Source: Desulfamplus sp. (GTDB lineage Bacteria; Desulfobacterota; Desulfobacteria; Desulfobacterales; Desulfobacteraceae). Taken from it: DNA of 64,000 bases. The stretch lies in contig JADGBO010000001.1 of assembly GCA_015231465.1 (NCBI GenBank), positions 1,552 through 65,551 on the forward strand, written 5' to 3'. Position 1 is the stretch's first letter. Each line of letters begins with the position of its first letter. Positions 10,314 through 60,868 of the stretch are shown piece by piece. The notes under the pieces are model-generated. The model worked only from the letters and a program-made list of their open reading frames with translations, was not told where the DNA came from and ran no database searches. The position numbers and the translations under genes were made by a program.

Positions 10314-10417
10314 GGCATCCTTCACGAGTACTTTACACTTTCTCAAGCCAAGCCCTTTTTTCAGGGACTTCACTCAAAAAAATTGTAAGCTACTTTTATG
10401 GGAATATGAAGGATGCC
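10314..10417. mobile_element. MITE-like element, family F (TIR GGCATCCTTCA)
   Basis: 11-bp terminal inverted repeat; homologous copies at 46956..47058 and, inverted, 56500..56665. Confidence 0.8.
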
Positions 10418-10434
10418 TAAAAATCTATGTTTTC

Positions 10435-11856
10435 TTAAAACCCACCATTTTCAATGTGGGCCATGGCAAGCCTTATCCTATCAACGGTTTTTTTCTGCCC
10501 AAGGGCCAGAATCATCTCAAAAATACCGGGACTGACAGTACCGCCGGTCAGTGCCACCCGAAGGGGTTGTGCAATTTTGCCAAATTTTAGTCCGGTCTCA
10601 TCCATAACTCTTTTCAGGGCATCTTCCAGACCCTTTTCTGTAAAGTTATCATCATCCAGTGCACCAATGCAGAGGGCTGAACGGTTTAGCATATCCAAAG
10701 CATCGGGTTTCAGGAATTTTTTTGCTGCAGCTTCATCCAGCTCAATGATCTCCCTGAAATAGAACATGGATGAATCTGCCATCTCCACCATGGTTTTGCT
10801 TCTCGACTGGAGAGTACCAATGGCCATCACCAAATCCTCTTTTGTCTGGGATGGATCAACAACAATACCTTTTTTTTCCAGGTGGTACAAAAGTGCGGGA
10901 GCCAGCTCCGAAGGAGCCTTGCTATGAATATGTCTGGCATTTAGGGCTGTCAATTTATCCATGTCGAACATGGAGGGTGAGCGACCGATGTGATCCAGTG
11001 AAAACTTCTGGATCAGCTCTTCACGGGTAAAAAATTCCTGATCCCCAAATGACCATCCCAGGCGTACAAGGTAGTTGAGCATGGCATCGGGCAGATAACC
11101 CATCTCCCTGTATTCGCTCACAGACATGGCTCCATGGCGCTTGCTGAGCCGTGCCTTGTCCGATCCGAGGACCATGGGCACATGGGCAAAAAGTGGCATG
11201 AAAGCACCAAGAGCCTTGTATATGAGCATCTGTTTGGGTGTGTTCACAAGGTGATCATCCCCCCTGATTACGGTATTTATCCCCATGGTTATGTCATCCA
11301 CCACCACGGCCAGGTTGTACATGGGGCTGCCATCGCTTCTCTGGATAATGAAATCATCCAGCTCGCTGTTGGGAAAGGCTGTGTTTCCCTTTACCACATC
11401 CTCAACCACCGTGCTTCCTGTTCTCGGTGATTTCAGGCGTACCACCGTGCCAGACTTACCCTCCTTTTGAAGTTCCCTGCATTTGCCGTTGTACATGGGT
11501 TTTTTTCCTGCCGCCTTTGCCTCCTCCCGCATGGCGTTCACATCTTCCTGTGAGCAATCACAATGATATGCGTTCCCTGATTCCACAAGTTTCCGGATAT
11601 ATTCTCTGTATATGTCATATCGCTGTGTCTGGAAAAAGGGGCCTTCATCCCAGTCAATACCCAGCCATTCAAGGGATTCAAAAATAGCATCCACGGACTC
11701 CCTGGTGGATCTTGCCTGGTCTGTATCTTCAATTCTCAATACAAACTTTCCCCCTGTTTTTCGAGCATAAAGCCAGTTGAATAGTGCGGTTCGTGCTCCA
11801 CCTATATGAAGATAGCCGGTGGGGCTGGGAGGAAATCTTGTAACAATAGTACTCAT
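10435..11856 (-). CDS. gltX: Glutamate--tRNA ligase
   Basis: RFPPSPTGYLHIGG, LRIEDTD, RGDDH, LSKRHG. Confidence 0.97.
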   Translation of the reverse strand: MSTIVTRFPPSPTGYLHIGGARTALFNWLYARKTGGKFVLRIEDTDQARSTRESVDAIFESLEWLGIDWDEGPFFQTQRYDIYREYIRKLVESGNAYHCDCSQEDVNAMREEAKAAGKKPMYNGKCRELQKEGKSGTVVRLKSPRTGSTVVEDVVKGNTAFPNSELDDFIIQRSDGSPMYNLAVVVDDITMGINTVIRGDDHLVNTPKQMLIYKALGAFMPLFAHVPMVLGSDKARLSKRHGAMSVSEYREMGYLPDAMLNYLVRLGWSFGDQEFFTREELIQKFSLDHIGRSPSMFDMDKLTALNARHIHSKAPSELAPALLYHLEKKGIVVDPSQTKEDLVMAIGTLQSRSKTMVEMADSSMFYFREIIELDEAAAKKFLKPDALDMLNRSALCIGALDDDNFTEKGLEDALKRVMDETGLKFGKIAQPLRVALTGGTVSPGIFEMILALGQKKTVDRIRLAMAHIENGGF

Positions 11857-11950
11857 GTGGTCTCCATCTGTTATAACGTTTAGATTATGGCGGTTAATGC
11901 AGTCATGTCTTATTTGGGACGGTTGGAAATAACTTGCCCATTCTTAATAT

Positions 11951-12862
11951 CTATTTTAGAAAATCCTTGTGTGTAAATACCGGATTTGGGTAGTCATAAA
12001 ATCCTGTGCCGGATTTAACACCCAGCTTTCCTCTATCCACATACTCCTTTAAAAAGGCGGCATTGGCGAGAGCCTGCCCGTCCTTTCTTTTTTGTGCCCA
12101 GAAGCTGGTGACTCTCCATACAGTATCCACACCTATGCTGTCAATCATTCCAAAGGGACCCAATTTGGTATGGAGCACTCCCATCCAGGATCGGTCAATA
12201 TCTTCAATGGAAGCAACCCTGTTGGTTGCCAGCCCCAGTGCGGCACCTATACAGGCCATGAGCATATTGTTGAATACGTAGCCATGGTTTTCCATTTTCA
12301 GTTCAATGGGTATCTGGCCAATTCGGATGGCAAATTCTTTTACCAGCTCAATGGTTTCAGGGCTTGTGCCTGGATGGGGCATAATGTCCACAATTCTGGT
12401 GATTGTAATGTCATGGAAATGGAAGGCACAGAACTTTTCCGGTCGCCCCACTGCATGGGCAAACATGGAAGGCACAAGTGTGGATGTGTTGGTTGTAAAA
12501 ATTGTATGTGGTTTGCACAGGGTATGAAATCCGGCAAAGACTCTGCCCTTCAGATCAGGATCTTCGGGTACAGATTCAATTATCATATCCGCATCACAGG
12601 CTGCTGTTTCAGGATTATCATCAAGGGAGATCAGGGCCATGGCAGTCTCTGTCTCTTCCCGTGTGAACTCACCGGATGCTGTAAGACGTTTAGAGATGGT
12701 TTTCATGCGCTCAAATCCCTTTTCAAGGATATCCATGGAGATGTCGTGCATGGTTACTTCATAACCATGCAGGGCGGAAATCAGGGCAGTCTGCTGTCCC
12801 ATGGTGCCTCCCCCCGCAATTAATATTTTTTTTATATCTTCTATTTTTAAATCAGGCTCCAT
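11951..12862 (-). CDS. 3-hydroxyacyl-CoA dehydrogenase
   Basis: GGGTMG Rossmann motif, ESVPE, TNTST, GKLGVKSGTGFYDY. Confidence 0.92.
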   Translation of the reverse strand: MEPDLKIEDIKKILIAGGGTMGQQTALISALHGYEVTMHDISMDILEKGFERMKTISKRLTASGEFTREETETAMALISLDDNPETAACDADMIIESVPEDPDLKGRVFAGFHTLCKPHTIFTTNTSTLVPSMFAHAVGRPEKFCAFHFHDITITRIVDIMPHPGTSPETIELVKEFAIRIGQIPIELKMENHGYVFNNMLMACIGAALGLATNRVASIEDIDRSWMGVLHTKLGPFGMIDSIGVDTVWRVTSFWAQKRKDGQALANAAFLKEYVDRGKLGVKSGTGFYDYPNPVFTHKDFLK

Positions 12863-12895
12863 TTTTTGCCCCTCTTGTCTTTAAATCTTTTTTTT

Positions 12896-13167
12896 ATAAG
12901 AAAGTCTACCTCACCCCCTGGCCCCCTCTCCATGACTGGAGAGGGGGGAATAGTGAGGACTTTCATGCTTCGCTGTGCCCGAAAGGGCATGGCCGTTTAT
13001 ATGAAAGTCCCCGCAGTTCAAGGGCTTTCATTCCTTCGATTGTGGCGTTACACCGCCATGGCCGTTATATAAAAATCTCCGCAGTTTCAGGACTTTCATT
13101 CCTTCGATTGTGGCGGTACACCGCCATGGCCGTTATATAAAAATCTCCGCAGTTTCAGGACTTTCAT
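12896..13167 (+). repeat. Head-to-tail array of about 3.5 family B units
   Basis: Unit AT(A/G)AAA(G/A)TC-[cargo]-G(A/G)CTTTCAT-(G/TC)CTTCG..TGTG-hairpin-CATGGCCGTT(T)ATA. Confidence 0.85.
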
Positions 13168-13170
13168 CTC

Positions 13171-14289
13171 TTATATTTCCATGAGCATCAATGCCCGTTT
13201 TTCAAGAATTTTAACAGCGTGGATCAGCATCCCGAAACGCTTGTCCCTTGTCAATCCCTGATGGAATCGCTTATAGATCTGCTGGGCAATGACTGCAAGG
13301 CGAAACAGGCCGAAACATTCATAAAAATCAAAGAATTGCATGCTTAGACCGCTCTTTTGACCATATGTTTTTATGATCTCCTCGCGTGTCATTGCACCAT
13401 CCATGTCAGTGGGCATTGTCCTCATCATCTGCCACTGGGGTGGATCGCTCTTTTCCACCCAGTAGGCCAGAGAACTTCCCAGATCCATTAAAGGGTCACC
13501 ACAGGTGGCCATCTCCCAGTCCAGAAGTCCCACGATCTCAACCGGATTGTCCGGATTCAGAACCATGTTGTCAAACTTGTAGTCATTGTGAATAAGGGTG
13601 GGATTTGGGGTATCCGGCTGCATCTTTTCCATGAGCCAGGCAATGACCGTTTCAAAGTCAGGTGCATCCTCTGTCTTGGCGTTGCGATATCTGTCTGTCC
13701 ACCCCTCCACCTGACGTCGGATGTAACCCTGGGGTCTTCCCATGAAATCGCATCCCCTGGAGATGATATCCGTCAAATCCACTCCATGGAGTTTCAGGTG
13801 CATATCAATCATATTATGGCAAAGCTGCCTTGCCTGATCCCTGGAAAATGAGATCCCCGGTGGTGGATCCCTGCGAAGGATAATTCCTGAAAGTTTCTCC
13901 ATTACATAAAAGGGAGCACCCAGTATGGAGGTATCTTCGGAGCAGGCAAGGGGTTTGGGACAGTATGGAAACTGGGGGTATATTAGACTCAGGATCCTGT
14001 ACTCCCTTATCATGTCATGGGCAGTCTTGATTTTTGCCCCCATGGGAGGCCGTCTCAATACCATCTCCCGATCTCCCATTTTCAGAAGATAGGTGAGATT
14101 GGAAAAGCCTCCAGGGTATTGCTCAACACTCAAAGCTCCCCGAACCCCTTTGACATGCTCCCTTAAAAAGGATTCAAGGGCATATGTATCCAGCTCCTCT
14201 CCAGCTCTTACATTTACTGTATTGTCATATGTGCCCGTTTCCTGGTGTGAACTCATGTTTATGTTTCCCTTGTTTTTGCTTGTGTGCAC
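13171..14289 (-). CDS. APH/phosphotransferase-family kinase (ACAD10/11 kinase domain, LvaA-like)
   Basis: GGFSNLTY, LRRPP, AHDMIREY, HNDYKFDN, LLDWEMATCGDPLMDLG; true start may be ATG 14256. Confidence 0.9.
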   Translation of the reverse strand: MHTSKNKGNINMSSHQETGTYDNTVNVRAGEELDTYALESFLREHVKGVRGALSVEQYPGGFSNLTYLLKMGDREMVLRRPPMGAKIKTAHDMIREYRILSLIYPQFPYCPKPLACSEDTSILGAPFYVMEKLSGIILRRDPPPGISFSRDQARQLCHNMIDMHLKLHGVDLTDIISRGCDFMGRPQGYIRRQVEGWTDRYRNAKTEDAPDFETVIAWLMEKMQPDTPNPTLIHNDYKFDNMVLNPDNPVEIVGLLDWEMATCGDPLMDLGSSLAYWVEKSDPPQWQMMRTMPTDMDGAMTREEIIKTYGQKSGLSMQFFDFYECFGLFRLAVIAQQIYKRFHQGLTRDKRFGMLIHAVKILEKRALMLMEI

Positions 14290-14321
14290 TTAAATCTTCC
14301 CAGAAAAAGTATAAACTACTT

Positions 14322-14426
14322 TTAGGAATGGATTTTTAATAATGTGCCCATTCCAGAATAGAGCGCCGTTTAACGGCGGTCTATGTGATTTTTAAAATGG
14401 GTAAGTTGTTTCGGAATCATTCCTTA
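14322..14426. mobile_element. MITE-like element, family A shell with an alternative hairpin cargo
   Basis: TAGGAATGGATTTTTAATAA..GCCCATT / ATGGGTAAGTT.TTTCGGAATCATTCCTTA; its end overlaps the TetR stop codon. Confidence 0.7.
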
Positions 14427-15140
14427 GAGTGATATGAAGGATATCGTAAAATCAATCAGATATTCTGTGTAGGTGTCCACTGTGATGCCACGTTTTTTGT
14501 ATTTCCAGCGTTTCAGATACCAATCCTGTTGCATGGCCTTAATAAGGGATGCTGTCATTACATGGTCCCGTTTGATAAAGATTCCCTCGGTTTCTCCGGC
14601 TTCAAGGATCTCCAGGAGCATATTTTCGGTATACTCTTCCATGGATAATACCGCTTCACGGCCTGTGGGAGTAAGATTTCTGGCTTCCATGAAGGTAAAG
14701 TAAAACCAGGGACGTGCAGACTCACTCAAGAACATGTGTGCCTTTATCAAGGTACGCAGTTGTTCCACTGGATTGGCCTGGGGATCATAAAATTGTCCAA
14801 ATATTTTACGAATCATGGAGTTGCCCTGTTTATGAATGATGGCCAGCAGCTCCTCCTTCCCTGAAAAATATCCGTACAGGGCCCCCAGACTCAATTTGGT
14901 GTGGCAGCTCAGATCCCTCATGGTCATGGCCTGGAAACCCTTTTCATAGGTTATTTCAAATACTGAATTGAATATTTTTTCAAAATTTTTAACTGCAGTT
15001 GCCTCTTTTTTGATCCTTATGGCATCCTGGTTTTCCAGATAGACATCCCGATAGAGGTTTTCCTCCCTGATTTCCAGAATATTTTTGAACTCTGCATAAT
15101 TCATTTTAGATAATGATTTCATTTGTGATAATGACTTCAT
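14424..15140 (-). CDS. TetR/AcrR family transcriptional regulator
   Basis: KGFQAMTMRDLS..LSLGALYGYFSGKEELL helix-turn-helix. Confidence 0.92.
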   Translation of the reverse strand: MKSLSQMKSLSKMNYAEFKNILEIREENLYRDVYLENQDAIRIKKEATAVKNFEKIFNSVFEITYEKGFQAMTMRDLSCHTKLSLGALYGYFSGKEELLAIIHKQGNSMIRKIFGQFYDPQANPVEQLRTLIKAHMFLSESARPWFYFTFMEARNLTPTGREAVLSMEEYTENMLLEILEAGETEGIFIKRDHVMTASLIKAMQQDWYLKRWKYKKRGITVDTYTEYLIDFTISFISL

Positions 15141-15233: not shown

Positions 15234-15426
15234 CTCAATAGTCTTAAGTTCTCAAATTTACCACTATAGATTTCCAGATAAATAATTTGCAGAACCTTGG
15301 CTTGAAGGCCGCAAACAGGGGGCTTTGGTCGCCAATTTTGTTTTCTGGAATAGTATATATATTGTGGTCGTAACTTACTACAAATACTATCTGCTGTAGC
15401 AATTCAGAGAACTTATGACTGACGAG
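15234..15426. mobile_element. Family C element with a nested family D element (15265..15357)
   Basis: C ends CTC..AGTC.TAAGTTCTC / GAGAACTTATGACT..GAG; D ends TATAGATTTCCAGA / TCTGGAATAGTATA; this D copy matches 23328..23416. Confidence 0.8.
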
Positions 15427-17655: not shown

Positions 17656-17679
17656 TTTGAGTGGTCTATAATATTTTTT

Positions 17680-17840
17680 TATAAAAAAGTCTACCTCACC
17701 CCCTGGCCCCCTCTCCATGACTGGAGAGGGGGAATAGTACCGACTTTCATGCTTCGTTGTGCCCGAAAGGGCATGGCCGTTATAAGAAAGTCTACCTCAC
17801 CCCCGACACCCTCTCCATGAGTGGAGGCCGGGGGTGGGGT
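17680..17840 (+). repeat. Family B unit with CCCCTCTCC..GGAGAGGGG cargo, plus a second partial unit
   Basis: Near-identical to 12896..13000. Confidence 0.88.
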
Positions 17841-17911
17841 TACATTTCTACCCGACAGTTTGAACTTGAAGAAGCACTATATTAAGGTGTCGACTTTGAG
17901 TTACTCTGGTT

Positions 17912-19979: not shown

Positions 19980-20091
19980 GTAAGTATTCGGTAAAACCCG
20001 TTTTTCATACAATATATCGTTGTGTAACTTTGATTTTTAACACATCAACACAACATATCCTCTTCTAATACTTCGTTTACCGAATGTTTAC
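19980..20091. mobile_element. MITE-like element, family E
   Basis: TIR GTAAGTATTCGGTAAA / TTTACCGAATGTTTAC. Confidence 0.75.
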
Positions 20092-22943: not shown

Positions 22944-23057
22944 GGGTCATAAATCATGATTGCATCACAATCACCTCATATGGGTCATAAATCATGATTG
23001 CATCACAATCACCTCATATGGGTCATAAATCATGATTGCATCACAATCACCTCATAT
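22944..23057. repeat. Perfect 3 x 38-bp tandem repeat
   Basis: GGGTCATAAATCATGATTGCATCACAATCACCTCATAT three times with no spacers; degenerate fourth copy at ~23191..23222. Confidence 0.95.
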
Positions 23058-23158
23058 AACGGCCATGCCCTTTCGGGCACATCGAAGCATGAAAGTTGTT
23101 ACTATTCCCCCTCTCCATTCATGGAGAGGGGGCCAGGGGGTGAGGTAGACTTTCATAT
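23055..23158 (-). mobile_element. Family B unit (inverted)
   Basis: Reverse complement of 17680..17783. Confidence 0.88.
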
Positions 23159-23327
23159 AAAAATGAAAAGGTGATACATTTGCAAGACAAACCATCATGA
23201 TTGCGTCACCATTAACCCATATAATGAAAATGTGATACATTTTCACGATAAAGTAAGGAGAGAAATGGGTAAGTTATTTCGGACTCTTTGCTGACTGAAC
23301 GTTTTAATGTGTCACATTCGATATTCA

Positions 23328-23638
23328 TATAGATTTCCAGATAAATAATTTGCAGAACCTCTGCTTCAAGGCCGCAAATATTGGGCTTGGGTCGCCAATA
23401 TAGTTTTCTGGAGTACTTACTTCCAGGGAAGTTTGGCTGCTGTCGAATTGAATATCAGAGGCTGGGCACTCATTCACAATTTCGCCCCGTGCAACCCTCA
23501 AACGGTAAAAACGCATGGCGGGTTGAAAAGCCAGACAGAATGGCTCAACAAAGCCTTTTATCATGAAAATTGGCTCCAAAATCTGTTTTCATCCTCGTCA
23601 ATGGCGGGGGATAGGAACCCGCCCCCTAATCCGTTATA
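23328..23638. mobile_element. Cluster: family D copy, AGGCT..AGCCT-ended segment, divergent family B unit
   Basis: 23328..23416 resembles 15265..15357; 23563..23638 is ATGAAAAT..TTTTCAT-CCTCG..hairpin..CGTTATA. Confidence 0.6.
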
Positions 23639-23652: not shown

Positions 23653-25506
23653 TTATCTTTTACATGCCCCACATTGACTGCAATTATCAAAAGGACAATC
23701 CGGAGAAATTATTTCATTTTGGGCCTGCTGGTACTCTCTGACGAGAAAACTTTTTTTGATGCCGGTATCTAATATATCCCAGGGCAGGGGAGAGTCTGGA
23801 GACATGGGGTGGTGTATGGTGGGCAGGATCTTGATGTGGTCAGGGTGTTTAAGGGCTTTGGACCATCCAATGTCAAGTGCGGTTTCCAGAACATGGGACA
23901 TGCGTCGATCTCCCATGGAGAGAAGGGCATTTATGTAAGCCGTTTTTGGAGATTCACTGTTCACGGCAATGTTACCTTCCCTTTTGAGTCCATCTCTGAT
24001 TTTTTTCACTTTTTTTTTGTAAATGGCAGGAATCTCCATGGCAGCCCACTGGAACGGGGTAGAAGGTTTGGGTATGAAGGGGTTGATGCTCAGTGTTATT
24101 GTGCCGATTTTCTTCTGTTTTCGACTCGCTTCAAGAAACACCTGTTTTATTTTAAGTGTCAGTTCCACTATTTCAGTGATGTCTCCATCTGTTTCAAAGG
24201 GAAGGCCGGTCATGAAATAGAGTTTTATGTTGTGAATACCGTGTTCCACAATGCGCTTGACCGCAGACAGAATCTGGGGTTCAGTAATTTTTTTGTTTAT
24301 GATACGCCTCATGCGCTCGGATCCGGCCTCCGGTGCAATGGTGGCGGTCTTTACTCCGGATTGTACAAGGGATAAAAGAGTCTCATCCGTTAGATTGTCC
24401 AATCTTAATGAACTGAATGATATCTTTTGGCCATTGGTAATACCTGCTGCGCATATTGTGTTGATCTTTGGATGGTCAGACACAGATGCCCCCACAAGAC
24501 CTATTTTGTCTGTCATGGCAAGGGCATGATCCATAGCTTTTATAATTATATGGTCAGGGTAGAATCGGGCAGGGCGATAGATGAATCCCGCACTGCAGAA
24601 TCGGCATCCATGGGGACAACCCCGGCCGGTTTCAATGAGAACTGTGTTTTTGAATGCAGTGTCGGGGGTGATAATTGTGGTAGCCGTGGTTGTATGGGAT
24701 AGATCCAGGGTGCGCTGGATCTCAGGCCTGGGAATGTCGTCATGGAGGTTCTCTGTTTTTAAAAGGAGCTCTCTGCCTTGTGCCATATGGTATACCGGTT
24801 GATATAAGGAAGGGACATAGGCCCCTTTTACGGTTTTGGCAATCTCCTTTAAAATTGCCTGTTTTGGAGATTCTTCACCATCTCCAGGGATTAATGCCGG
24901 GTGGATGTGAGCATGGTTTTGATCTATGTATCGGCAGGAAATTACGGCTATGAACCGGCTGATCATCTCCTCGGATTCACCGAGCAAAAAAAAGTCCATG
25001 AAGGGGGCCACAGGTTCTGGATTGAGAAAACAGGCCACCCCGCCCGCTATTATAAGTGGGCAGGAGGAGAGAGACTCGTCTCTATCTCTTGATCTCAGTG
25101 GAATATGGGCATCTTTCAGGATGGATATGAGATTTAGAAAATCATTCTCAAAAGAAACTGAAAAGGCAATAATATCGTAGTCGGAGAGGGAGATGCCGGA
25201 TTCAATGCTTTTAATGTCGGATTTGATGCTTTTAAAGCCGTATTTGATTCTTTTAATATCCGATTTAACAATATTTTCAAGTCTGGACTCAATGTTTTTA
25301 AGGGGGGGGGCAAGGAAGAAACGATGGCAGGCAACATGATCATGGGCATTAAAAAGAGAATAAACAGTCTGGAATCCCAGGTTTGACATTCCTGCTCCAT
25401 AGCTGTTGGGATAGACAAGAGCGATGTTTAACGCTCCCTTTTTTTTGGACGTCACATGCCCACGCTCCATGGGATGTCTGTCCATTGCCCATTGTCCATT
25501 ATCCAT
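23653..25506 (-). CDS. B12-binding-domain radical SAM protein
   Basis: YPNSYGAGMSNLG, ETGRGCPHGCRFC, APEAGSERMR, FIPKPSTPFQW, C-terminal CxxCGAC; start uncertain. Confidence 0.9.
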   Translation of the reverse strand: MDNGQWAMDRHPMERGHVTSKKKGALNIALVYPNSYGAGMSNLGFQTVYSLFNAHDHVACHRFFLAPPLKNIESRLENIVKSDIKRIKYGFKSIKSDIKSIESGISLSDYDIIAFSVSFENDFLNLISILKDAHIPLRSRDRDESLSSCPLIIAGGVACFLNPEPVAPFMDFFLLGESEEMISRFIAVISCRYIDQNHAHIHPALIPGDGEESPKQAILKEIAKTVKGAYVPSLYQPVYHMAQGRELLLKTENLHDDIPRPEIQRTLDLSHTTTATTIITPDTAFKNTVLIETGRGCPHGCRFCSAGFIYRPARFYPDHIIIKAMDHALAMTDKIGLVGASVSDHPKINTICAAGITNGQKISFSSLRLDNLTDETLLSLVQSGVKTATIAPEAGSERMRRIINKKITEPQILSAVKRIVEHGIHNIKLYFMTGLPFETDGDITEIVELTLKIKQVFLEASRKQKKIGTITLSINPFIPKPSTPFQWAAMEIPAIYKKKVKKIRDGLKREGNIAVNSESPKTAYINALLSMGDRRMSHVLETALDIGWSKALKHPDHIKILPTIHHPMSPDSPLPWDILDTGIKKSFLVREYQQAQNEIISPDCPFDNCSQCGACKR

Positions 25507-25545
25507 TACCTATTATCCATTGCCCATTACCTATTGTCCATTATC
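25481..25545. repeat. Heptamer tandem repeat, C(C/T)ATT(G/A)(T/C), about 9 copies
   Basis: tccattgcccattgtccattatccattacctattatccattgcccattacctattgtccattatc. Confidence 0.9.
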
Positions 25546-26842: not shown

Positions 26843-27014
26843 AAATTTCCCCCTTTTTAATCGTTAATAAAAGTATTTTGATTTTTTATTGGAAAGTCTA
26901 TATAAGAATTTGTTTTTAAAAGACTTTCATGTATGGTTATGATCCGTCGGTCATCATGACGGTTTATTTAAAACCTGTAGTGGCGAATAATCATTCGCCA
27001 ATGCGTATTATTAT

Positions 27015-31760: not shown

Positions 31761-31866
31761 TTAAGGAATCGGTTTTTAATAACTTGCCCATTTACCTCAC
31801 CCTCCAGCCCCCTATCCATGGCTGGAGAGGGGGAGAAAGGGAAAGTTATTTCGAACTTATTCCTAA
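31761..31866 (+). mobile_element. Family A element with CCCC..GGAGAGGGG cargo
   Basis: Ends TTAAGGAAT / ATTCCTAA; inverted near-copy at 40388..40492. Confidence 0.88.
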
Positions 31867-31953: not shown

Positions 31954-33414
31954 TCAGTTTGCTTTCAGAGCCTGCCTGGCAGTATTGATGCAGCTATGGG
32001 CAATGGCTCTGTCTGCATGGGGAAGTCCCAGTTTCCCTGAATTCACAGCCATGTTTTTCATATAATCCGGATGGTTTGCGGCAAAGGATATCTTTTCCAC
32101 AACATACTCTCCTGTCAGTTCGCTGTCACAGACCATCCATGCAGCCCCCTTGTCTGCGAGAATCCTTGCGTTAAAGGTTTGATGGTCGTCTGCTGCATGG
32201 GGATATGGTACCAGCAGGGAGGGTTTTCCAAGAGCCGTTATTTCCGAAATGGTTCCGGCACCTGCCCTGCAGATAATTAGATCAGCCCTGGCCATTATTT
32301 GGGGCATTTCATGGAAAAATGCACTTGCCGTTACCTTGACGGGACATCCGGCATCATATCCATTGGTAAGACTTTTGGGATTTTTAAGTTCACTGTAGGC
32401 GTTGAGTACCCGATTTTCATCCAAGGCACCTGTCTGATGAATAATGTGGCAATGTATTTCGGGGTTATTCCTGTGTTCTCCATGGCCATAATGGTTTTTT
32501 CCCTGATCTTTTTTTTCACCCGTTTCTTCCCCGTGTTCTATTACCTTGTCAAGTATTTTACGGACAGCTTCAATAACAGCGGTGTTGATGCTTCTGGCCC
32601 CTTGACTTCCACCGGTTACCAGCACAGTCAAGGGAATGCTTTCCTGTCGAGATGCTATGATTCCGTCTTCGTCCAGTGCAGAAGGCTTATGGCCGGCCCT
32701 TTTCCGTGCCGATGTAGCAAACTCTGTTTGATTTTGGGCAGGTGTTGCTGACTCTGCTCCATTTTGGGCAGTTGCCGCTGACTCTGATACATTTTGGGCA
32801 GGTGCCGCTGATCCTGCTCCATTTCTCATTGGGTTGCCGGTGTGAATGATTTTTTTGCAGCCATCCATCACCCTTGCACCATCCAGTCCCCTGGTGGGGT
32901 CAAAGGATGTAAATATGGTATCCACAATGTAAGAGAGTGTTTTGTTGGTTATGCCGGCAATGCTGTTTTGTTCGTGGATGGCTGTGGGGATTCCCATCAT
33001 TTTTGCACATGCAAGCACCGGCCCGGATGCATATCCCCCCACACCAAGTACCATATCTGGCCTGTATTTTTTCATGATGGTCATTGCCTGGAGTATGGAA
33101 AGGGGAATGTGCAGCAGAGCCGCCAGTTTACGGGTTATGGATTTCCCTTTTATGGCCATGGATGTAATCGACTTGTGCTCGAATCCATAGCGTGCAACTG
33201 TCTGGATTTCAAAGGACTCACCTGTGCCCACAAAAAGGATATGACTGCTCGGTTCAATCCTTGAAATGGCCTGGGCAACTGCAATTCCAGGGAAAAGATG
33301 TCCCCCTGTCTTTCCCCCTGCAATGATGAATTTAAGATCTTTGTTCAATGGTTTTCCTTGTTTTTTTGTTTTGCCGCCATTGATCTGTTTTACAGGTGAT
33401 GTTCTATGGATCAT
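31954..33414 (-). CDS. murG: Lipid II GlcNAc transferase MurG, with inserts
   Basis: GGKTGGHLFPG, GGYASGP, HEQN, TGNP, GGSQGA, RAGAGT; 30-bp repeats at ~32712..32822. Confidence 0.95.
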   Translation of the reverse strand: MIHRTSPVKQINGGKTKKQGKPLNKDLKFIIAGGKTGGHLFPGIAVAQAISRIEPSSHILFVGTGESFEIQTVARYGFEHKSITSMAIKGKSITRKLAALLHIPLSILQAMTIMKKYRPDMVLGVGGYASGPVLACAKMMGIPTAIHEQNSIAGITNKTLSYIVDTIFTSFDPTRGLDGARVMDGCKKIIHTGNPMRNGAGSAAPAQNVSESAATAQNGAESATPAQNQTEFATSARKRAGHKPSALDEDGIIASRQESIPLTVLVTGGSQGARSINTAVIEAVRKILDKVIEHGEETGEKKDQGKNHYGHGEHRNNPEIHCHIIHQTGALDENRVLNAYSELKNPKSLTNGYDAGCPVKVTASAFFHEMPQIMARADLIICRAGAGTISEITALGKPSLLVPYPHAADDHQTFNARILADKGAAWMVCDSELTGEYVVEKISFAANHPDYMKNMAVNSGKLGLPHADRAIAHSCINTARQALKAN

Positions 33415-36354: not shown

Positions 36355-36457
36355 CTCAAGAGTTGTAAGTTCTCACATTCACCACCATATATTGTCTTTT
36401 GATTGTTCAATTCAATTATATGTATAGTAAATATTCAGATAACCTATGACTGATGAG
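36355..36457. mobile_element. Family C element
   Basis: CTCAAGAGTTGTAAGTTCTCA identical to 55682; right end AACCTATGACTGATGAG. Confidence 0.8.
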
Positions 36458-39212: not shown

Positions 39213-41279
39213 TCACACATGGTCTGTTAAAGCGTAAATTTTTTTTGCTGCATTTGCAAGAATCAGCCTGTCATCAAAGTCTATTTTACCGGTTTTGATA
39301 ACTTGATAGGTCTCATGGCCCTTTCCTGCAGCAACCACAATGTCCCCGATTTGTGATATTTCAACAGCCATCTCAAGGGCCTTTCTTCTGTCTGCTTCAA
39401 CAATAATACGTTCAAGGGGATTTTTTCTGTTCCCTTCGCAAATATTCCGTTCAAGGAAATTTCTTTTATCACCTTCAAGAATGCTCAGTTCAAGGGAATT
39501 TCTTTTATCACCTTCAAGAATACTCAGTTCAAGGGAATTTCTTTTGTGATCGTCATCTATAATTTGTTCTCCGGCTTTTTTTCTGTTCGTTTCACCCTGA
39601 TTTTTTTCAACAGACCCCTCTGCATCGGAGTGGATTTCTGGGGAGGAACCTGTTTTTAATCCCACCATGATATCCTCAATTATTTTATGAGGATCCTCGG
39701 ATCGTGGATTATCCGACGTGACAATGAGTATATTGCTGTATTTTGAGGCAATTTCACCCATGGGAGCACGTTTTGTTATGTCCCTGTCTCCGCCGCATCC
39801 AAAAATTGTTATCAGACGGGCAGGTGCACGCATACTGAGTGTTTTTAGAATGGATTCAAGGGCATCTGGAGTGTGGGCATAATCCACAAAAATGTGACGT
39901 CCACCTCTGTTCTCAACCCGTTCCAGCCTTCCTGGAACTTCCCGGCAAGCCTCAATGCCGTCAACAATTGCCTGGGGTTGTATGCCCAGACCATGGCCGG
40001 CACCTGCTGCGGAGAGGATGTTCTCCAGGTTGAACCCTCCTGTGAGGCGTGATTTTAAGGGAAGAGTGTTGTTGTTTATGTGGAGCATTCCACAGATACC
40101 GGTGATTGTATCCTCTATATGGGATGCGGATATGCGGCCGGCAGGGCATGGATTGTGGCTGCCGGTTACATTGCCGGGGGCATGGTCGGTTGTCCCGTTG
40201 CCCGATATATGAATATCTGTCCCATTACCAAGGACATGATTTTCGTTACCATTGGTATGGCTGTTTTTTGTGGTCTCCATGACGGTTTCGGGGGGAAGGG
40301 CCTGAGCCAGTTTTTTGCCATGGGGATCATCCACATTGATAACCGAAAATTTAGTATCACGCTTATTAAATTTAGTTCCAGATTGATTAAGGAATGAGTC
40401 CGAAATAACTTTCCCGTTCTCCCCCTCTCCAGCCATGGAGAGGGGGCTGGAGGGTGAGGTAAATGGGCAAGTTATTAAAAACCGATTTCTAAATTGGTTA
40501 TTGGATTCATTGAATTTAGTGTCAGGTTCATTGAAGTTGCTGTAATATCCATTGGATGAAGAGTGTCTGCCATTGAGAAGTCGCGTGAATAGTCTTTTTT
40601 TACAGGCAAAGTATGCACCCATGTTTTTATGGTGATCAAGGTGATCCCGGGTCAGGTTGGTAAAGACGGCAATGTTGAAATCACAATCCCTTACACGATG
40701 CAGGTCAATGGCATGGGATGACACCTCCATGATCACATGGGTTACACCGGCATCACTCATCTGTGCCAGTATTCTGTGGAGATCTATGGATTCCGGAGTT
40801 GTTACGGGATTTTCAAAGCTTTGATCCTGGTATCTGTAGTTGATGGTACCGATTACTCCCACGGTGTGACCGGCGGTACGTAAAATGCTCTCCAGAATCC
40901 AGGTTGTGGTGGTCTTGCCATTTGTGCCGGTTATTCCGGCAACTACCATTTTGCTTGAGGGACGGCCGTAAAAATTATGGGCAATTGAAGACATGGCTTT
41001 GCGGGTATCTTTTACTTCCACCATTACTGCATGAGGAATTAGTCTTTCCATTCTTTTTTCTGTGATGACTGCCACAGCTCCGTTGGCCACGGCCTGGTCA
41101 ATGTAGTCATGGCCATCTGACCGAAATCCCTTTATGGCTATGAAAAGACCACCAGGCTTAACATCCTGGGCAGATGAGTGGATTGATGTGATGACTGGAT
41201 CCGAGTGCGGGCTTGATTCAGGATCAATCATCCTTTGCCACAGTGGTGTGCATGCCTTTATCAGATAAGACAATTTCAA
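39213..41279 (-). CDS. murE: UDP-MurNAc-dipeptide--mDAP ligase with large inserts (688 aa)
   Basis: GTNGKTTT, MEVSSH, NLTRDHLD, DYAHTPD, GCGGDRD, DNPR, AGKGHE; TTG start. Confidence 0.95.
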   Translation of the reverse strand: MKLSYLIKACTPLWQRMIDPESSPHSDPVITSIHSSAQDVKPGGLFIAIKGFRSDGHDYIDQAVANGAVAVITEKRMERLIPHAVMVEVKDTRKAMSSIAHNFYGRPSSKMVVAGITGTNGKTTTTWILESILRTAGHTVGVIGTINYRYQDQSFENPVTTPESIDLHRILAQMSDAGVTHVIMEVSSHAIDLHRVRDCDFNIAVFTNLTRDHLDHHKNMGAYFACKKRLFTRLLNGRHSSSNGYYSNFNEPDTKFNESNNQFRNRFLITCPFTSPSSPLSMAGEGENGKVISDSFLNQSGTKFNKRDTKFSVINVDDPHGKKLAQALPPETVMETTKNSHTNGNENHVLGNGTDIHISGNGTTDHAPGNVTGSHNPCPAGRISASHIEDTITGICGMLHINNNTLPLKSRLTGGFNLENILSAAGAGHGLGIQPQAIVDGIEACREVPGRLERVENRGGRHIFVDYAHTPDALESILKTLSMRAPARLITIFGCGGDRDITKRAPMGEIASKYSNILIVTSDNPRSEDPHKIIEDIMVGLKTGSSPEIHSDAEGSVEKNQGETNRKKAGEQIIDDDHKRNSLELSILEGDKRNSLELSILEGDKRNFLERNICEGNRKNPLERIIVEADRRKALEMAVEISQIGDIVVAAGKGHETYQVIKTGKIDFDDRLILANAAKKIYALTDHV
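40388..40492 (-). mobile_element. Family A element inserted in frame in murE
   Basis: 105 bp, reverse complement of 31761..31866; reads as FRNRFLITCPFTSPSSPLSMAGEGENGKVISDSFL. Confidence 0.9.
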
Positions 41280-46955: not shown

Positions 46956-47058
46956 GACATCCTTCACGATTGCTTTACACTTTTGGAAGCCAAATCATGT
47001 TTTCAGAGAGTTGCTTCAAAAAAGTGAAAACTACTTTTTTGAGAATATGAAGGATGCC
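46956..47058. mobile_element. Family F element flanked by family D-like ends
   Basis: G(A)CATCCTTCAC..ATGAAGGATGCC; homologous to 10314..10417. Confidence 0.8.
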
Positions 47059-48043: not shown

Positions 48044-48239
48044 GGTAAACTCCTTATATATTTTATAACAGCCATGGCGGCAAGAATATCTTTATTGGCC
48101 TTCAGGGAGAGCAATGTTTCCGATGCAGCATCCGGACCGTTGAAATAGAGGGGGGACTGGGGTGAGGTAAATGGGCAAGGTATTAAAAACCGATTCCTAA
48201 AGTGCGGCGAGACCGGTAGGGGCGAATGATTATCTGCAC

Positions 48240-48953
48240 CTACCGTACGAGGTGGCCGAAACGGGAATCAAGAGCCAATTTCACAAGTATGCCTTCTCTC
48301 AATTTTTTTTGCTTGACTATTCTTGCTATTCTGAGAAGGTGAGAACTTATTTTCAGCCCTGATCTCTTTTTTGCATCTAAATTTATCTCAAAACCAGTAC
48401 GATTATCCGGTTTTGGATAAAAATTTATCATCCCCCCTTTTTCTGCAAATCCTGGAAAATCTCCTATTGTTAAAACAGGGAGGTCCCTCACCATGAAAAA
48501 AAGTTTATCAAGCTTGTCTTTCCCCAACTCTCCCACAATGATAATCTGGATGTTCTCTCCGGCACAGGAAATTATATCTTCACAATAGAGAACCCTGAGT
48601 TTCCGTCCCTGAAACCTCCTTTGGGCAAATGCTTCAAAAAGATTTCCGTACCTGTTCCTGCCCGTAACTGCAATGGTAAAGCAGTCCGAACAGGGCAAAC
48701 CTTCTGAACAGGGCAAAACCTCTTGAATAAAGGCATCTTCAGGCCATTCCATGAAATCTGTAAATTTTATTACAAGGGCAGCCTGAATCTCCTCTCTTGA
48801 AGGCTCTCCGGAATGGAGAGAACAGGGAGATATAAAAACGAGATAGAGCAGCAAAGATGCGGCAGAGATCATCTTGAATAACACAGATTTTTCAGAGCAT
48901 TTATAGAGGCGGGCAGAAGATGCTATAACAGATGATCCCGGGCAGATAAACAT
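48240..48953 (-). CDS. YfiR/HmsC-family periplasmic protein
   Basis: IQAALVIKFTDFMEWP, LPVLTIGD..GFAEKGGMINF, FEINL..SGLKISSHLLRIA; start at 48953 or 48872. Confidence 0.85.
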   Translation of the reverse strand: MFICPGSSVIASSARLYKCSEKSVLFKMISAASLLLYLVFISPCSLHSGEPSREEIQAALVIKFTDFMEWPEDAFIQEVLPCSEGLPCSDCFTIAVTGRNRYGNLFEAFAQRRFQGRKLRVLYCEDIISCAGENIQIIIVGELGKDKLDKLFFMVRDLPVLTIGDFPGFAEKGGMINFYPKPDNRTGFEINLDAKKRSGLKISSHLLRIARIVKQKKLREGILVKLALDSRFGHLVR

Positions 48954-49959: not shown

Positions 49960-49994
49960 ATATTTATTTTCCTTATATTTTTAACATTTTTTTT

Positions 49995-50168
49995 TATATG
50001 AAAGTCTACCTCACCCCCTGGCCCCCTCTCCATGACTGGATATGGAGAATAATGAGGACTTTCATGCTTCGTTGTACCCGAGAAGGCATGGAGGTTATAT
50101 GATAGTCCCCGCCATTGGGGGATTTTCATCTTTTCGATTGAGACGGTAATGCCGCCATGGCTGTTATA
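49995..50168 (+). repeat. Two tandem family B units
   Basis: Different cargos in the two units; the final GTTATA overlaps the selD stop codon. Confidence 0.85.
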
Positions 50169-51511: not shown

Positions 51512-51726
51512 GCAATTTTTTAGTCACTCCACTGTTTGAAATTTACAATACAATCACATCACTCAAACACTGCCTGTTTCAAACCAGAATGTGTAAGATT
51601 ATTATGATTCTGCCAAGAGACTACTGCATTGTCAAAGCTAAAAATTAGGGTTCGGTTAATTGTAGAGACAAAGCATGCCTTGTCTCTGCGTTGCAGATAA
51701 CCCTAAAATTAAGTATTGACAGTGCA

Positions 51727-51801: not shown

Positions 51802-51946
51802 TCATGGTTTATCCTTTGGTTACGGGTAACGTTGATGTACAGTCGTTCCCGATTATATAATATTTGCTCAATTGTCAACGGTATTTTTGTCTGAACCGTG
51901 ATTTCCATGATTTAAGGATTTACAGGATGGGTTCACAAAACCCCCC

Positions 51947-52669
51947 TCAGGCGGCCTCACGATGCTTCAGGGCATCCTCCAGTTCCCGGATCTCCTTTTG
52001 GATGGGTGCTGACATCTCCTTGTACTTTGCCCTGTCTATAGTGCCTGAAGCATAAAGGGAGTCGAGCATCTGGAGCTTTTCAAGTTTTCCTTCCAGCTTT
52101 CCTTCCAGCTTTCCTTCCAGCTTGCCTTCCAGCTTGCCTTCATTAATATAATGCTCAGATATGGTTGTTGCGACATAACTCATATTTTCCTCCTTTTTTA
52201 TCTGTTCCAGTCTCCCCCGGGGAATACCGCTGTAGGCATCGATCCACTGGGCAACCAGAAGTTTCCTGTCGTTATCCAGTTCTTCTTTCATATTGGCGAC
52301 ATCTCTGTATATTGCCTTAATAATCTCCTCCCTGTCCAGGCCCCTGTCATCTGCTTTAAGAGCGAGGAGTTTACAAAGCAATGAGTGCTTTTTCATCAAA
52401 TCGGAACTCTTCTCATTTTTCACCTTGATCACGTCAAAATGGCAGTGCTGCTTTCCCTTTCCTTCACTGAAAGCATACCAGAAACTGTCGGGTACCTTCT
52501 TTCTCCATACGGCATCATCCGTGTAGAAGGCAATGCTCCATACCGGTCTCTTTTTTAGAAGCCAGGCGTAACAAAAATATTCAAACAGACGCATGGAAAC
52601 ATCTTCCCTGTCGCTCTTATGCTCTATCTGAATGAAAACTTCGCATAAATCACCCTCTATCTCAACCTC
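51947..52669 (-). pseudogene. 5'-truncated Rpn/YhgA-like (PD-(D/E)xK) protein
   Basis: Frame is open upstream of ATG 52594 (EVEIEGDLCEVFIQIEHKS..MRLFEY) back to a TAA; C-terminal EGKL repeats. Confidence 0.65.
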
Positions 52670-53100: not shown

Positions 53101-53177
53101 TCTCCCCCCTCTCCATTCATGGAGAGGGGGTTGGGGGGGTGAGGTAAATGGGTAAGTTATCTAAGGTCGATTCCTTA
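53101..53177 (-). mobile_element. Partial family A element
   Basis: CCCCTCTCC..GGAGAGGGG..GTGAGGTAAATGGGTAAGTTAT..CGATTCCTTA. Confidence 0.8.
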
Positions 53178-54568: not shown

Positions 54569-54645
54569 TTAAAATTTGAACAATGAAGCCATGTTCATGT
54601 TCATAAATACCTCCTCAAGGAAGCCATGTTCATGCTCATGTTCAT
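54569..54645 (-). other. Two tandem uORFs, MNMSMNMASLRRYL and MNMNMASLFKF
   Basis: Each is preceded by GAGGAGGT-ATTT-ATG; linked by an ATGA overlap. Confidence 0.45.
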
Positions 54646-54663
54646 AAATACCTCCTCAAGGAA

Positions 54664-54693
54664 ACCCCTACGGTCACAAAGTGCCGTAGGGGT
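54664..54693. terminator. Strong hairpin (terminator or REP-like)
   Basis: ACCCCTACGG-TCACAAAGTG-CCGTAGGGGT. Confidence 0.65.
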
Positions 54694-54804
54694 AGTTGAC
54701 GCTCAATTGTCCACATACGCCATTCCAGAAGAGTATCGCCGCCAGGGAATCGGCGAAATCTATATGGAAGCGACGGGATTGCATAAGTTGGATCGATGAA
54801 ATCT

Positions 54805-55681: not shown

Positions 55682-55784
55682 CTCAAGAGTTGTAAGTTCT
55701 CATATCCCACACCATATATTGTGGTGATATATTGCATTACAGTACTATCTGTAGTGGTCAGTGGGAGAACTTATCACTCGCGAG
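55682..55784. mobile_element. Family C element
   Basis: CTCAAGAGTTGTAAGTTCTC / GAGAACTTATCACTCGCGAG. Confidence 0.8.
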
Positions 55785-55817: not shown

Positions 55818-55918
55818 TATAGTTTTCCAGACAATGAAATTGGCAACCGTATTGTAGGGGCAGTCCCTTGTGGCTGCCCCTGGGAATGGATTCGCTGAAA
55901 TATTATTCTGGAAGTATA
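55818..55918 (+). mobile_element. Family D shell carrying a GTAG-type REP
   Basis: TATAGTTTTCCAGA..GTAGGGGCAG..CTGCCCCT..TCTGGAAGTATA; inverted copy at 56711..56801. Confidence 0.8.
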
Positions 55919-55963
55919 GATAATGGTGTATTAGGATATCAATTAAGTTTTTGTCAACCCAAA

Positions 55964-56479: not shown

Positions 56480-56499
56480 GACTTTTGATATCTTTTATT

Positions 56500-56665
56500 G
56501 GCATCGTTCATATCATGCAGAAAGTAGTTTACACTTTTAGAAAAATTCTGAGCCATGATTAAAGGATTTAAGGATTTAAGGATTAACACCATTAAAAATC
56601 AAGGTAATCCCTTAATCATGAAAATCATGGTTCAAAAAAGTGTAAACCGACAAATTAAAGATGCC
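56500..56665 (-). mobile_element. Family F shell with an internal GATT(T)AAG repeat hairpin cargo
   Basis: Ends GGCATCGTTCATAT / AAGATGCC; cargo TGAGCCATGATT..AATCATGGTTCA, related to 51892..51935. Confidence 0.7.
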
Positions 56666-56710
56666 GACGATTTTATGTAATTATTTCTGGTCAGGTAATT
56701 ATGCTCCTAA

Positions 56711-56801
56711 TAGACTTCCAGAAAAATCTTTGATTCCCAAGGGCAGCCACAGGGGCTGCCCCTACAGTATGATTACCAATTTCATTATCTGGAAAACTAT
56801 A
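56711..56801 (-). mobile_element. Family D element (inverted)
   Basis: Reverse-complement similarity to 55818..55918; abuts the aroQ stop. Confidence 0.8.
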
Positions 56802-57251
56802 TTATGTTGGTTCATCAAGAACAAGGCTCCATGCAGCCCTTAAACCGAGCAGATAACTGTTCATGCCGAATCCTGTAATCTGACCCTTTGCAAGGGGGGC
56901 GACCAGCGATATATGGCGAAACGGTTCCCGGGCATGGACATGGGACATGTGAACCTCCACAATGGGGACAGTGAGTATGGCAAGGGCATCCATTACAGCA
57001 TAGCTGTAGTGGGTCCAGGCACCTGGGTTTATTACAACGGCATCAACCCGGGCTTCATGCAGGGCGTGGATTTTTTCCACCATCTCCCCTTCATGGTTTG
57101 TCTGCCAGCATTCAAGAACAATATTGAGTTCAGCGGCCAGTTCATGCAGCTTTCCGTTGATTTCACTTAAAGTTACACTGCCATACTGTGCAGGGTCACG
57201 TCTGCCGAACATATTGAGATTTACACCGTGGAGAACAACTATTTTTTTCAT
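56802..57251 (-). CDS. aroQ: Type II 3-dehydroquinate dehydratase
   Basis: HGVNLNMFGRRDP..YG, QTNHEG, NPGAWTHYS, EVHMS, REPFRH. Confidence 0.96.
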   Translation of the reverse strand: MKKIVVLHGVNLNMFGRRDPAQYGSVTLSEINGKLHELAAELNIVLECWQTNHEGEMVEKIHALHEARVDAVVINPGAWTHYSYAVMDALAILTVPIVEVHMSHVHAREPFRHISLVAPLAKGQITGFGMNSYLLGLRAAWSLVLDEPT

Positions 57252-57715
57252 AAAATCTGGTGCAGGAAGCCGCTATCCCTTCAGGGTAACGGAGGAATGC
57301 ACTCCTCCTCCTTCTTGTTTGTCGTACAATAATGGAAAGTGTAAGGTTGGGCAATCATTCCTTAATAAAACTTCATAACATTAAAAGTCAACCATATTTC
57401 ACTGAACTGTATCTGTTCTTGATTTTTATCTTGACACTCTCCGTGACTCTAATTAATATCGAACCTGTTTCCCTTCAATGAATGGTGTTTCTGCCCGAGA
57501 GTATCCATTCGTAAGAAACAAGTCCCATCCACCCAAATTGGCGAAAACAGTAACAGCATCTGCGGAAACTGTCCTGGATTTAGACAGTAAAAGCATCTGT
57601 GGAAATTGTCCTGGATTCACATGGGACTGTTTTATCGCTATATATACCTGCAAATTAAATCCGTAAAGGCTGCTTTAAAGGCAATGATTTAAGATGACCG
57701 AGGAGGCTTTGAAAA

Positions 57716-59971: not shown

Positions 59972-60077
59972 CCGTGGTCATTGAGTTCCCACCGCTGCCA
60001 TGAATGCCCCAACATAATCAAATTTACTTAAACCGCGGATAATCCGCATTAACCATAAACATAAAGAAGGAGATATC

Positions 60078-60650
60078 ATGCTTAAAAAAGTTTTTTTTGT
60101 CCTGTTTGCCGTCTTTTTTACTGTAACACCCCTTTATGCCGCTAAAATAGGCGGAGTTGAGGTGGCGGATACCATTACCCTTGAAGACGGAAAGGGAGAG
60201 CTTGTACTCAATGGTGCAGGCATTCGTTCAAAATTTGGGTTCAAGGTTTATGTGGGATCCCTTTATCTCAAGGCAAAGACCTCGGACTCCCAGCAGATAA
60301 TCAACTCTGATGAACCCATGGCAATAACCATGACATGGACAAGAACAGGCCCTCCCGATAAATTGGTCGATGTTTTTGCAGAAGGTTTCAAATACGCGGC
60401 AGGGGATAATTACGATGCCCAGAAGACCAACATTGATGCTTTCCTCGGTGCCATTGTCAAAGCATCAAAAACAGACATCTGGAGATACATATACATGCCC
60501 GGCCAGGGAACATCTATCTATTATAATGATGAGTTCAAATTAAACATTCCGGACCTTGATTTCAAGAAAGCCCTTTTTTCGGTATGGCTGCTTGAAACTG
60601 ATACCTTTACCGGCGACGAAAAACTCCGGGATGGAATGCTTGGCAAATAA
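60078..60650 (+). CDS. Exported chalcone-isomerase-like protein
   Basis: Signal peptide, LVLNGAGIRSK..KVYVGSLY, FKKALFSVWL, LRDGMLG. Confidence 0.88.
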   Translation: MLKKVFFVLFAVFFTVTPLYAAKIGGVEVADTITLEDGKGELVLNGAGIRSKFGFKVYVGSLYLKAKTSDSQQIINSDEPMAITMTWTRTGPPDKLVDVFAEGFKYAAGDNYDAQKTNIDAFLGAIVKASKTDIWRYIYMPGQGTSIYYNDEFKLNIPDLDFKKALFSVWLLETDTFTGDEKLRDGMLGK

Positions 60651-60688
60651 CGCCTATGCATGGCAAAACCAAGCATGAACTTAATTTT

Positions 60689-60868
60689 TATATGAAAGTC
60701 CCCATATTTTAAGGGGCGTATGCAATACTCCCCTACTTTCATGCTTCGATTGTGGCGGTAATGCCGTCATGGTGGTTATATGAAATTCCCCATATTTTAA
60801 GGGGCGTATGCAATACTCCCCTACTTTCATGCTTCGATTGTGGCGGTAGTGCCGCCATGGTGGTTATA
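60689..60868 (+). repeat. Two tandem family B units with AGGGG..CCCCTAC REP cargo
   Basis: ~90-bp near-perfect duplication with the same shell as the 12896 array. Confidence 0.88.

Follow-up and report, generated by a model that had tools for sequence, protein, structure and literature searches.

The window and its short elements

The window, the whole 64,000-nucleotide stretch of Desulfamplus sp. DNA that was analysed, is occupied by housekeeping genes and carries many short gene-less elements, each of which consists of the ends of an insertion sequence (IS), here termed the shell, and an interior, here termed the cargo, that is often a hairpin. Our analyses indicate that shells and cargos occur in many combinations, that the two land together, and that new combinations likely arise by nesting and recombination, with the cargo as a passenger. 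The window corresponds to G000:C111:1552-65551, where G000 is this assembly (3.63 Mb, 402 contigs, 72% complete), other G-numbers denote other genomes, C-numbers contigs and L-numbers extracted loci. No transposase family was detected among the 50 open reading frames (ORFs) scanned in the window, as an earlier note on this DNA had stated, and an Rfam scan returned only tRNA.

Shell A is found with a DUF559-type hairpin (named after genes beside which it also occurs) at 31762..31866, with a 3-bp target duplication, and at 40388..40492, where the 105-bp element lies in frame in murE and is missing from the murE of a sister organism. Half A elements with the same hairpin are located at 48147..48202, where the hairpin is partial, and at 53101..53177, while a complete A at 14322..14426 holds a small GC hairpin, has a 3-bp duplication and sits within a decayed F arm; the sister organism has F there. 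In shell B, whose strand is given as that of its parent IS, the DUF559-type hairpin occupies the first unit (12896) of a minus-strand head-to-tail array at 12894..13177 that continues with short-loop units, a single minus-strand element at 17676..17787, a single element in the opposite (plus) orientation at 23052..23163, and one unit (49995) of a two-unit minus-strand array at 49993..50167, the other unit having a short loop. At 17788..17879, a B end and the same hairpin are joined to one arm of a further shell, M. GTAG-type hairpins occupy both units (60688 and 60776) of a minus-strand B array at 60688..60867 and shell D at 55818..55920 and 56709..56801; two free copies on the plus strand, at 26978..27003 and 48216..48245, are each present once in the assembly. 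The hairpin at 51662-51689, which the earlier note had also taken to be free, lies inside shell J (51625..51726), which has IS630 ends and the 4-bp flank of its parent.

The remaining elements hold other interiors. Two D elements have non-GTAG interiors, one (15265..15357) nested in a C element (15234..15426) and one (23328..23417) with a decayed end. Shell F has plain interiors at 10314..10417, with an 8-bp target duplication and a same-ended parent in G264, and at 46956..47058, and at 56500..56665 an interior resembling a repeat that flanks GxxExxY genes, with no exact target duplication; the positions 14322 and 56500 thus hold other cargos, as had been noted. Shell E lies at 19980..20091 and is presumably IS66-like, judging from its ends and 8-bp duplication; further C elements lie at 36355..36457 and 55682..55784. 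An AT-rich box common to the C and E interiors (window 55682-55784, 19980-20091, 36355-36457) may resemble NrdR operators; a loose count of paired boxes in these interiors gave no spacing peak.

Two related organisms are mixed in the assembly: most genes of the window have a second homologue elsewhere in it, at approximately 72-88% identity. A composition classifier (cross-validation 0.80-0.91) assigned approximately 330 kb, including the window, to the minor organism, with C111, C222, C11, C33, C166 and C352 on one side and C110, C299, C63, C14 and others on the other. The stated contamination of the assembly is 3.7% despite this mixture. As the window belongs to the minor organism, assembly-wide counts mostly describe its sister.

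Shells and cargos occur in many combinations

A self-comparison of the assembly yielded 1665 segments at fivefold cover or more, amounting to 202 kb and including coding paralogues. Thirteen arm profiles, with 25-586 matches each in the assembly versus 0-6 in the reversed genome, were then paired into 11 shell families with 908 elements: B (226), D (193), A (115), K (101), C (89), H (59), G (58), F (40), I (14), E (9) and J (4). Shell M was seen twice, with an intact copy at G000:C166:17931. Terminal inverted repeats surround a short non-coding interior in A, C, D, E, F, G, H, I and J. The earlier note had described at least six terminal-repeat shells and two cargos, all of which lie at, or a few bases from, the positions that it gave; the six are real, although B lacks terminal inverted repeats, and G, H, I, J, K and M had been overlooked.

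Cargos were tallied by shell, with subfamilies (e.g., F1, G0, B4) labelled by their medoids. The GTAG cargos show a GTAG tag followed by a GC-rich hairpin, which is the anatomy of repetitive extragenic palindromes (REPs), and were found in 174 of 193 D, 58 of 59 H (as paired hairpins), 56 of 58 G, 65 of 226 B, 13 of 40 F and all four J elements. The DUF559-type hairpin was present in 53 of 115 A elements, with 42 more resembling its decayed form, in three B elements by arm pairing (9/204 by a separate pattern) and in one F element. A third class, the GxxExxY-type repeat, was carried by 12/14 I and 3/40 F elements. The same picture was obtained within the minor organism, where the B loops of six contigs contained eight DUF559-type hairpins, one GTAG hairpin and eight short loops, and where the shared cargos also occur in A, D, F and I. 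Thus, shell and cargo do not co-segregate, even in one organism, and the clustering of ends and cores with the tally of their combinations confirms that one shell carries various cargos and one cargo rides in various shells.

The shells are not confined to this assembly: G001 and G012 also carry them, although some of the interiors differ (200 kb of each genome was read), and across the order the B motif was found in 28 of 251 genomes and the A arm in 25 of 401 (control, 0). In other genomes of the order, the B loop is either empty or filled with runs of heptamer repeats or with other hairpins; similar heptamer runs are also found at window 25479-25545, G000:C21:3151 and C214:224. The subfamilies of D, A and C have unrelated interiors beyond the arms.

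Joint movement of shell and cargo

Exact target duplications were compared with chance pairing of flanks (expected numbers in brackets). Duplications of 8 bp flank 23/39 F (0.0), 35/55 H (0.0) and 4/9 E elements (0.0); those of 7 bp flank 42/89 C (0.1), of 9 bp 23/58 G (0.0), of 6 bp 10/14 I (0.4) and of 3 bp 85/115 A elements (43.8), and three of the four J elements have a 4-bp duplication. The same comparison revealed no variable target duplication for B, K or D, and the invariant 2-bp flank of D is indistinguishable from the element end itself.

Joined flanks matched elsewhere for 119 of 840 units, many of the B and K rows being merely array neighbours. Among the matches listed, clean filled/empty pairs were obtained from nesting, in which the host element is restored and the difference is 3 bp for A or 8 bp for F, H and E; the pairs for K and B show a fixed short core instead of a duplication. 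Among 12 orthologous gaps compared, the window had a scored shell in eight, the same shell was found in none of these eight orthologues, and other shells occupied four of the sister-organism gaps. Because of the level of divergence, these gaps are coarse rather than base-exact empty sites; at strain level, one sequencing run (6% of words present) gave no clean element skip. Shell and cargo therefore land as one unit, and sites without the element exist, in relatives as orthologous gaps that lack the window's shell and, for nested copies, as filled/empty pairs.

Parents of the inverted-repeat shells

Six shells (A, J, I, F, B and K) were traced to full-length parents in five families, which bears out the earlier proposal that the shells are non-autonomous derivatives of IS elements sharing their ends. 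J shares its arms and 4-bp flank with its parent, an IS630 element of 1221 bp in G010 (133.3 bits, cut-off 100). For I, the parent is 1359 bp long, lies in G006 and encodes a transposase that is IS701-like, its best score of 91.1 bits being below the cut-off of 170. Shell A derives from ISAzo13 elements, of approximately 1.35-1.4 kb in G264, G144 and G208 and 2.3 kb in G212, in which both arm types are present, with matching 3-bp flanks in the G264 copies read; their transposase scores 481.6 bits to NF033519 (cut-off 200). The parent of F is a 1923-bp element with four copies in G264, two of which were read and show an 8-bp duplication (L580 and L581, G264:C1:1896944-1898866 and 3740446-3742368). 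Its 538-aa protein has a weak likeness to Mutator/ISL3 and is named by no Pfam or NCBIfam family, and its Atlas neighbours are unnamed clusters, a minority with Mutator/ISL3 matches.

For the other shells, E and D are presumably derivatives of IS66 (from its ends and 8-bp duplication) and IS630, respectively, judging from the traits of these families. The ends of E matched none of 14 IS66 loci, none of 16 single-arm loci of D held a transposase, and IS256, considered for G, was absent from the five genomes searched. Two other assignments were rejected: the arms of F and H were unmatched at the ends of 30 IS1595 loci, and F was later placed in another family; A was not found among DDE_Tnp_1 or DDE_Tnp_4 loci as an IS5/ISL2 derivative, and proved to be ISAzo13.

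Shells B and K are miniature IS110 elements

The earlier note had regarded the shells as mobilised by DDE transposases. This does not hold for B, the commonest shell, or for K, whose parents encode DEDD recombinases of the IS110 family (NF033542, 237.3 and 260.4 bits, cut-off 140). Aligned with such an element, the B ends correspond to its left end and the tip of its right end, and the two ends of K correspond to those of another IS110 element, found in G001. As its ends come from an IS110 element, B is not an inverted-repeat miniature; the B and K ends are not inverted repeats, and the elements show only a fixed short core. With the IS110 parent found, derivation of B from IS91 or IS200/IS605 was dropped; neither a B nor a K end brackets the 30 Y2 loci or the Y1 loci scanned. 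The B elements, 65-110 bp in length and about 226 in number, have no RNA gene, form head-to-tail arrays (two or three units in 30 of 193 called arrays) and hold exchangeable hairpins. Close relatives of the parent are present in 21 of 121 genomes of the family, and none of the B recombinase was found in viral contigs. In this assembly, an IS110 copy on C388 has B units on both flanks, and a fragment lies on C352, a minor-organism contig.

The parent of B has sub-terminal inverted repeats of 9-10 bp. Its left extension, of about 30 bp, contains a hairpin and does not vary among the copies of a given element, and its right end, where measurable, spans 329-472 bp. Part of the right end is conserved and folds; among ten sequences, compensatory changes affect 10 of the 19 pairs in the consensus. 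Across 27 IS110 copies from 15 genomes with five guide types (the G010 and G001 copies being excluded), an 8-nt guide in the right end was compared with the left insertion junction: 26 copies show a match of at least 6 nt, versus 5 of 470 pairings with another guide. In the predicted right-end RNA, an invariant stretch corresponds to the right-end junction and a third stretch to a site located about 30 bp inward from the left end. The flanks of B array termini follow the guide rule loosely: 84% and 89% agree at the two core-adjoining positions (n=88), and 25 of 80 show a full four-letter match. By analogy with the systems described in the parts of PMC11208160 and PMC11187229 that we consulted, we infer that the right-end RNA is produced and that B moves in trans. 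B would then be circularised and inserted by the IS110 recombinase with this RNA, and its arrays may form since the target resembles the right end of B.

Possible sources of the cargos

Of the 18 GxxExxY genes examined, five have flanks that match the repeat of I and of subfamily F6, three of them on both sides; the other genes have analogous flanking repeats of different sequence. The hairpin common to A and B matches the upstream flank of two of four DUF559 genes. For the GTAG core of J, a scan of 4 of the 64 parts of a metagenome collection yielded 104 distinct loci, nine of which have a RAYT-like ORF nearby and eight of which are enclosed by other inverted repeats (versus 1 of 118 controls); in L256, this core lies upstream of a RAYT-like gene that scores 60 bits, below the cut-off of 80. 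The core of B4 showed neither enclosure nor a RAYT-like neighbour in 47 loci of a viral collection, and the RAYTs of the family are associated with a different REP type. Intact RAYT, DUF559 or GxxExxY genes were not found in this 72%-complete assembly, which has four RAYT fragments. The description of the cargos as REP hairpins fits one of the three traced classes, GTAG/RAYT, while the other two flank DUF559 and GxxExxY genes.

Further arrangements of hairpins and genes were observed. The RAYT-like genes at L256:1032-1667 and L270:847-1218 have copies of their own GTAG hairpin in frame within the protein. At L003:1280-1700 (G000:C155), a Y1-transposase fragment lies between two inverted hairpins inside an F-type element that also contains a GxxExxY-type repeat. 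In G001 and G012, an IS4-like element and its miniature lie in the middle of DUF559-type hairpins (L108:4779-4965, L160, L098:18947).

These gene neighbourhoods raise the alternative that the hairpins are themselves mobile, i.e., that RAYT, DUF559 and GxxExxY nucleases cut and reinsert them, that shells are favoured landing sites, and that two mobilisation routes are coupled, as the earlier note had proposed. The adjacency of hairpins to all three gene classes, the enclosure of the J core by other inverted repeats, the many different cargos of the B loop across the order and the many cores outside paired shells would all agree with it. However, cargo replaces the shell interior with neither duplication nor insertion signature, shared tracts reach past the hairpin, the free hairpins of the window are present in one, one and two copies in the assembly and hence are not amplified, an intact cognate gene was not found, and the B4 core stands unenclosed and apart from RAYT-like genes in the viral loci. 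We consider this explanation unlikely, and the coupling of two routes was not borne out.

Likely exchange by nesting and recombination

The explanation that we favour, and hold to be probable, is that the shells are IS-derived, gene-less elements that move together with their hairpin, and that new pairs likely arise through rare nesting and recombination. Enzymes supplied in trans would mobilise shell and cargo together. A cargo may first enter a shell from the flanks of RAYT-like, DUF559 or GxxExxY genes or from free copies; elements then nest, as they commonly do even in the absence of targeting since they make up a large share of the intergenic DNA, and recombination or deletion across a shared hairpin would occasionally create a new pair that amplifies clonally.

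Several chimeras are consistent with these steps. In its four copies, F2 combines an F arm with the left half of G, the shared hairpin and F1's right half; the 8-bp duplication is exact in one copy and approximate in two, suggesting that F2 has moved again as F. G0 and F1 share approximately 25 bp past the hairpin, F8 carries the A2 junction, and at C222:51920 a B end is joined via a hairpin to an A arm. A loose hairpin census, whose control counts were high (176 for 529; 73 for 138), served only for finding such hybrids. Given these chimeras, of which one kind or more moved after its formation, nesting plus recombination is the likely way of swapping. Furthermore, in all but one of the 18 subfamilies tested, copies have a median identity of 0.94-1.0 to their nearest neighbour, which fits rare creation followed by clonal spread.

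Other observations weigh against this reading or narrow it. Many cores lie outside paired shells (D, 107/251; F1/G, 49/117; B4, 43/58), although on inspection many of them appear to have one arm or decayed flanks. The chimeras could be products of two existing pairs rather than the origin of one, and each transfer could have run in either direction. Parents of C, D, E, G and H were not found in the loci scanned, nor those of C and D in viral contigs. The IS110 copy of this assembly is internally deleted, and its left end contains a C element; the 27 IS110 copies are not independent, as they come from 15 genomes with only five guide types; and the genome-wide counts pool two organisms.

A second alternative is that each pair was born at once, either when an IS carrying a hairpin-gene-hairpin cassette lost its middle or when adjacent DNA was taken up between IS ends, in the course of gap repair or of composite transposition, with no exchange between shells. 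It would account for the complete inverted repeat in I and F6, which brackets GxxExxY genes, for the paired GTAG hairpins of H, for the hairpin-flanked Y1 fragment of L003 and for the unrelated interiors of the D, A and C subfamilies; in addition, IS110 enzymes are described as able to use sites beyond their own ends in the part of PMC12288879 that we consulted. However, the parent elements that were read show no such cassette in their non-coding ends, and F2, G0, F8 and C222:51920 represent exchange between shells; we therefore find this origin improbable.

A bolder version combines both enzyme sets in a genome-wide relay of selfish DNA, in which RAYT, DUF559 and GxxExxY proteins would nick the hairpins and hand them to DDE and IS110 ends in a switch of carriers, and in which B would be a natural donor for a bridge recombinase: 65-110 bp long, with a free cargo slot, reading a site that lies about 30 bp inward of its left end, and targeting its own right end. 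We regard this relay as doubtful. Finally, selection of the pairs by the host as regulatory cassettes (terminators, RNA stabilisers or repressor sites) is highly improbable, for although the hairpins are GC-rich and the C and E interiors may resemble repressor boxes, the element sites are not kept between relatives, convergent gaps are not strongly preferred, and in the 120 co-directional gaps crude gene calls give 48 B elements a sense and 72 an antisense orientation.

Other features of the window and assembly

Several core genes of the window, for the cell wall and other functions, contain in-frame tandem repeats or inserts (39213-41279, 34715-36331, 31954-33414 and 9194-10237); the repeat units measure 39, 27, 30 and 24 bp, and the murE insert is the 105-bp A element. 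In the sister contig C299 and in G001, a single open frame spans murE into murF. The segment at window 51944-52669 is 94% identical to G000:C388, far above the 72-88% of the adjoining genes, and its sequence points to a possible recent transfer between the two organisms. Hairpin ends of the IS200/IS605 type lie immediately 5' of genes at window 54637-54705 and 57243-57309, and one cluster of the assembly contains 64 copies. An integron cassette array with attC-like repeats is found at G000:C325:752 and 1329, C242:3342 and C282:2707.

Comparison with known systems

The comparisons below refer to the consulted parts of the cited papers. The inverted-repeat shells resemble IS-derived MITEs (miniature transposable elements with inverted repeats) such as Correia/NEMIS, RUP, ERIC, Nezha and Chunjie, which are short and non-coding, with inverted repeats, target duplications and a same-ended parent IS (PMC3184786, PMC3733652, PMC11602168); for A, F, I and J the likeness extends to a demonstrated parent, and for C, D, E, G and H it lies in anatomy. 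Unlike those MITEs, nine families coexist here, and their interior hairpins are common to unrelated transposase families; shared cargo of this kind is absent from the MITE accounts in these parts of the three papers. A literature search, mostly of non-subscription sources, found no paper on REP cargo in MITEs, MITE-REP chimeras or ISAzo13 MITEs, which supplements or ISfinder may hold, and no study of hairpins flanking DUF559 or GxxExxY genes.

The cargos are related to the GTAG REPs and REPINs of RAYT systems, REPtrons and TIRtrons (PMC3733652), which likewise have GTAG-tagged hairpins, the J core lying beside RAYT-like genes elsewhere. In contrast to these systems, the main GTAG cores have, in their intact copies, mostly spread within IS-derived shells, and two further cargo classes, associated with DUF559 and GxxExxY genes, are present. 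IS and REP are also joined in the REP-targeting elements IS1397 and IS621 (PMC3184786), as with the IS4-like element in the DUF559-type hairpin of G001; there the IS lies inside the REP, whereas in our shells the hairpin lies inside the IS ends.

Miniature IS110 elements are already known from MITEPpu9 (PMC12288879), and an engineered mini-IS with cargo can be moved in trans (PMC11187229). Like MITEPpu9, the derivative of ISPpu9, and with reference to the bridge or seekRNA elements of the IS1111 group (PMC12288879, PMC11208160, PMC11187229), B and K keep only IS110-family ends and a short conserved core, and the parent of B resembles the IS1111 group in its sub-terminal inverted repeats, long structured right end and target-matching guide. 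B differs from MITEPpu9 in having no RNA gene, about 226 copies, head-to-tail arrays and exchangeable hairpins, and its parent differs from the IS1111 group, with extensions of 7 bp on the left and 3 bp on the right (PMC11187229), in that the left repeat lies about 30 bp inside, behind a hairpin.

These observations suggest a possible route by which REP-like hairpins reach hundreds of copies with no enzyme of their own, which is relevant to the unsolved problem of REP spread. They also show that DUF559 and GxxExxY genes have flanking hairpins of their own, and offer a candidate for a minimal IS110 donor of natural origin, with insertion sites numbering in the hundreds and a parental guide that varies with the target. 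Taken together, the system is mechanistically mixed and built from known kinds of elements, and what sets it apart is its breadth, with six traced parents from five families and three traced classes of cargo.

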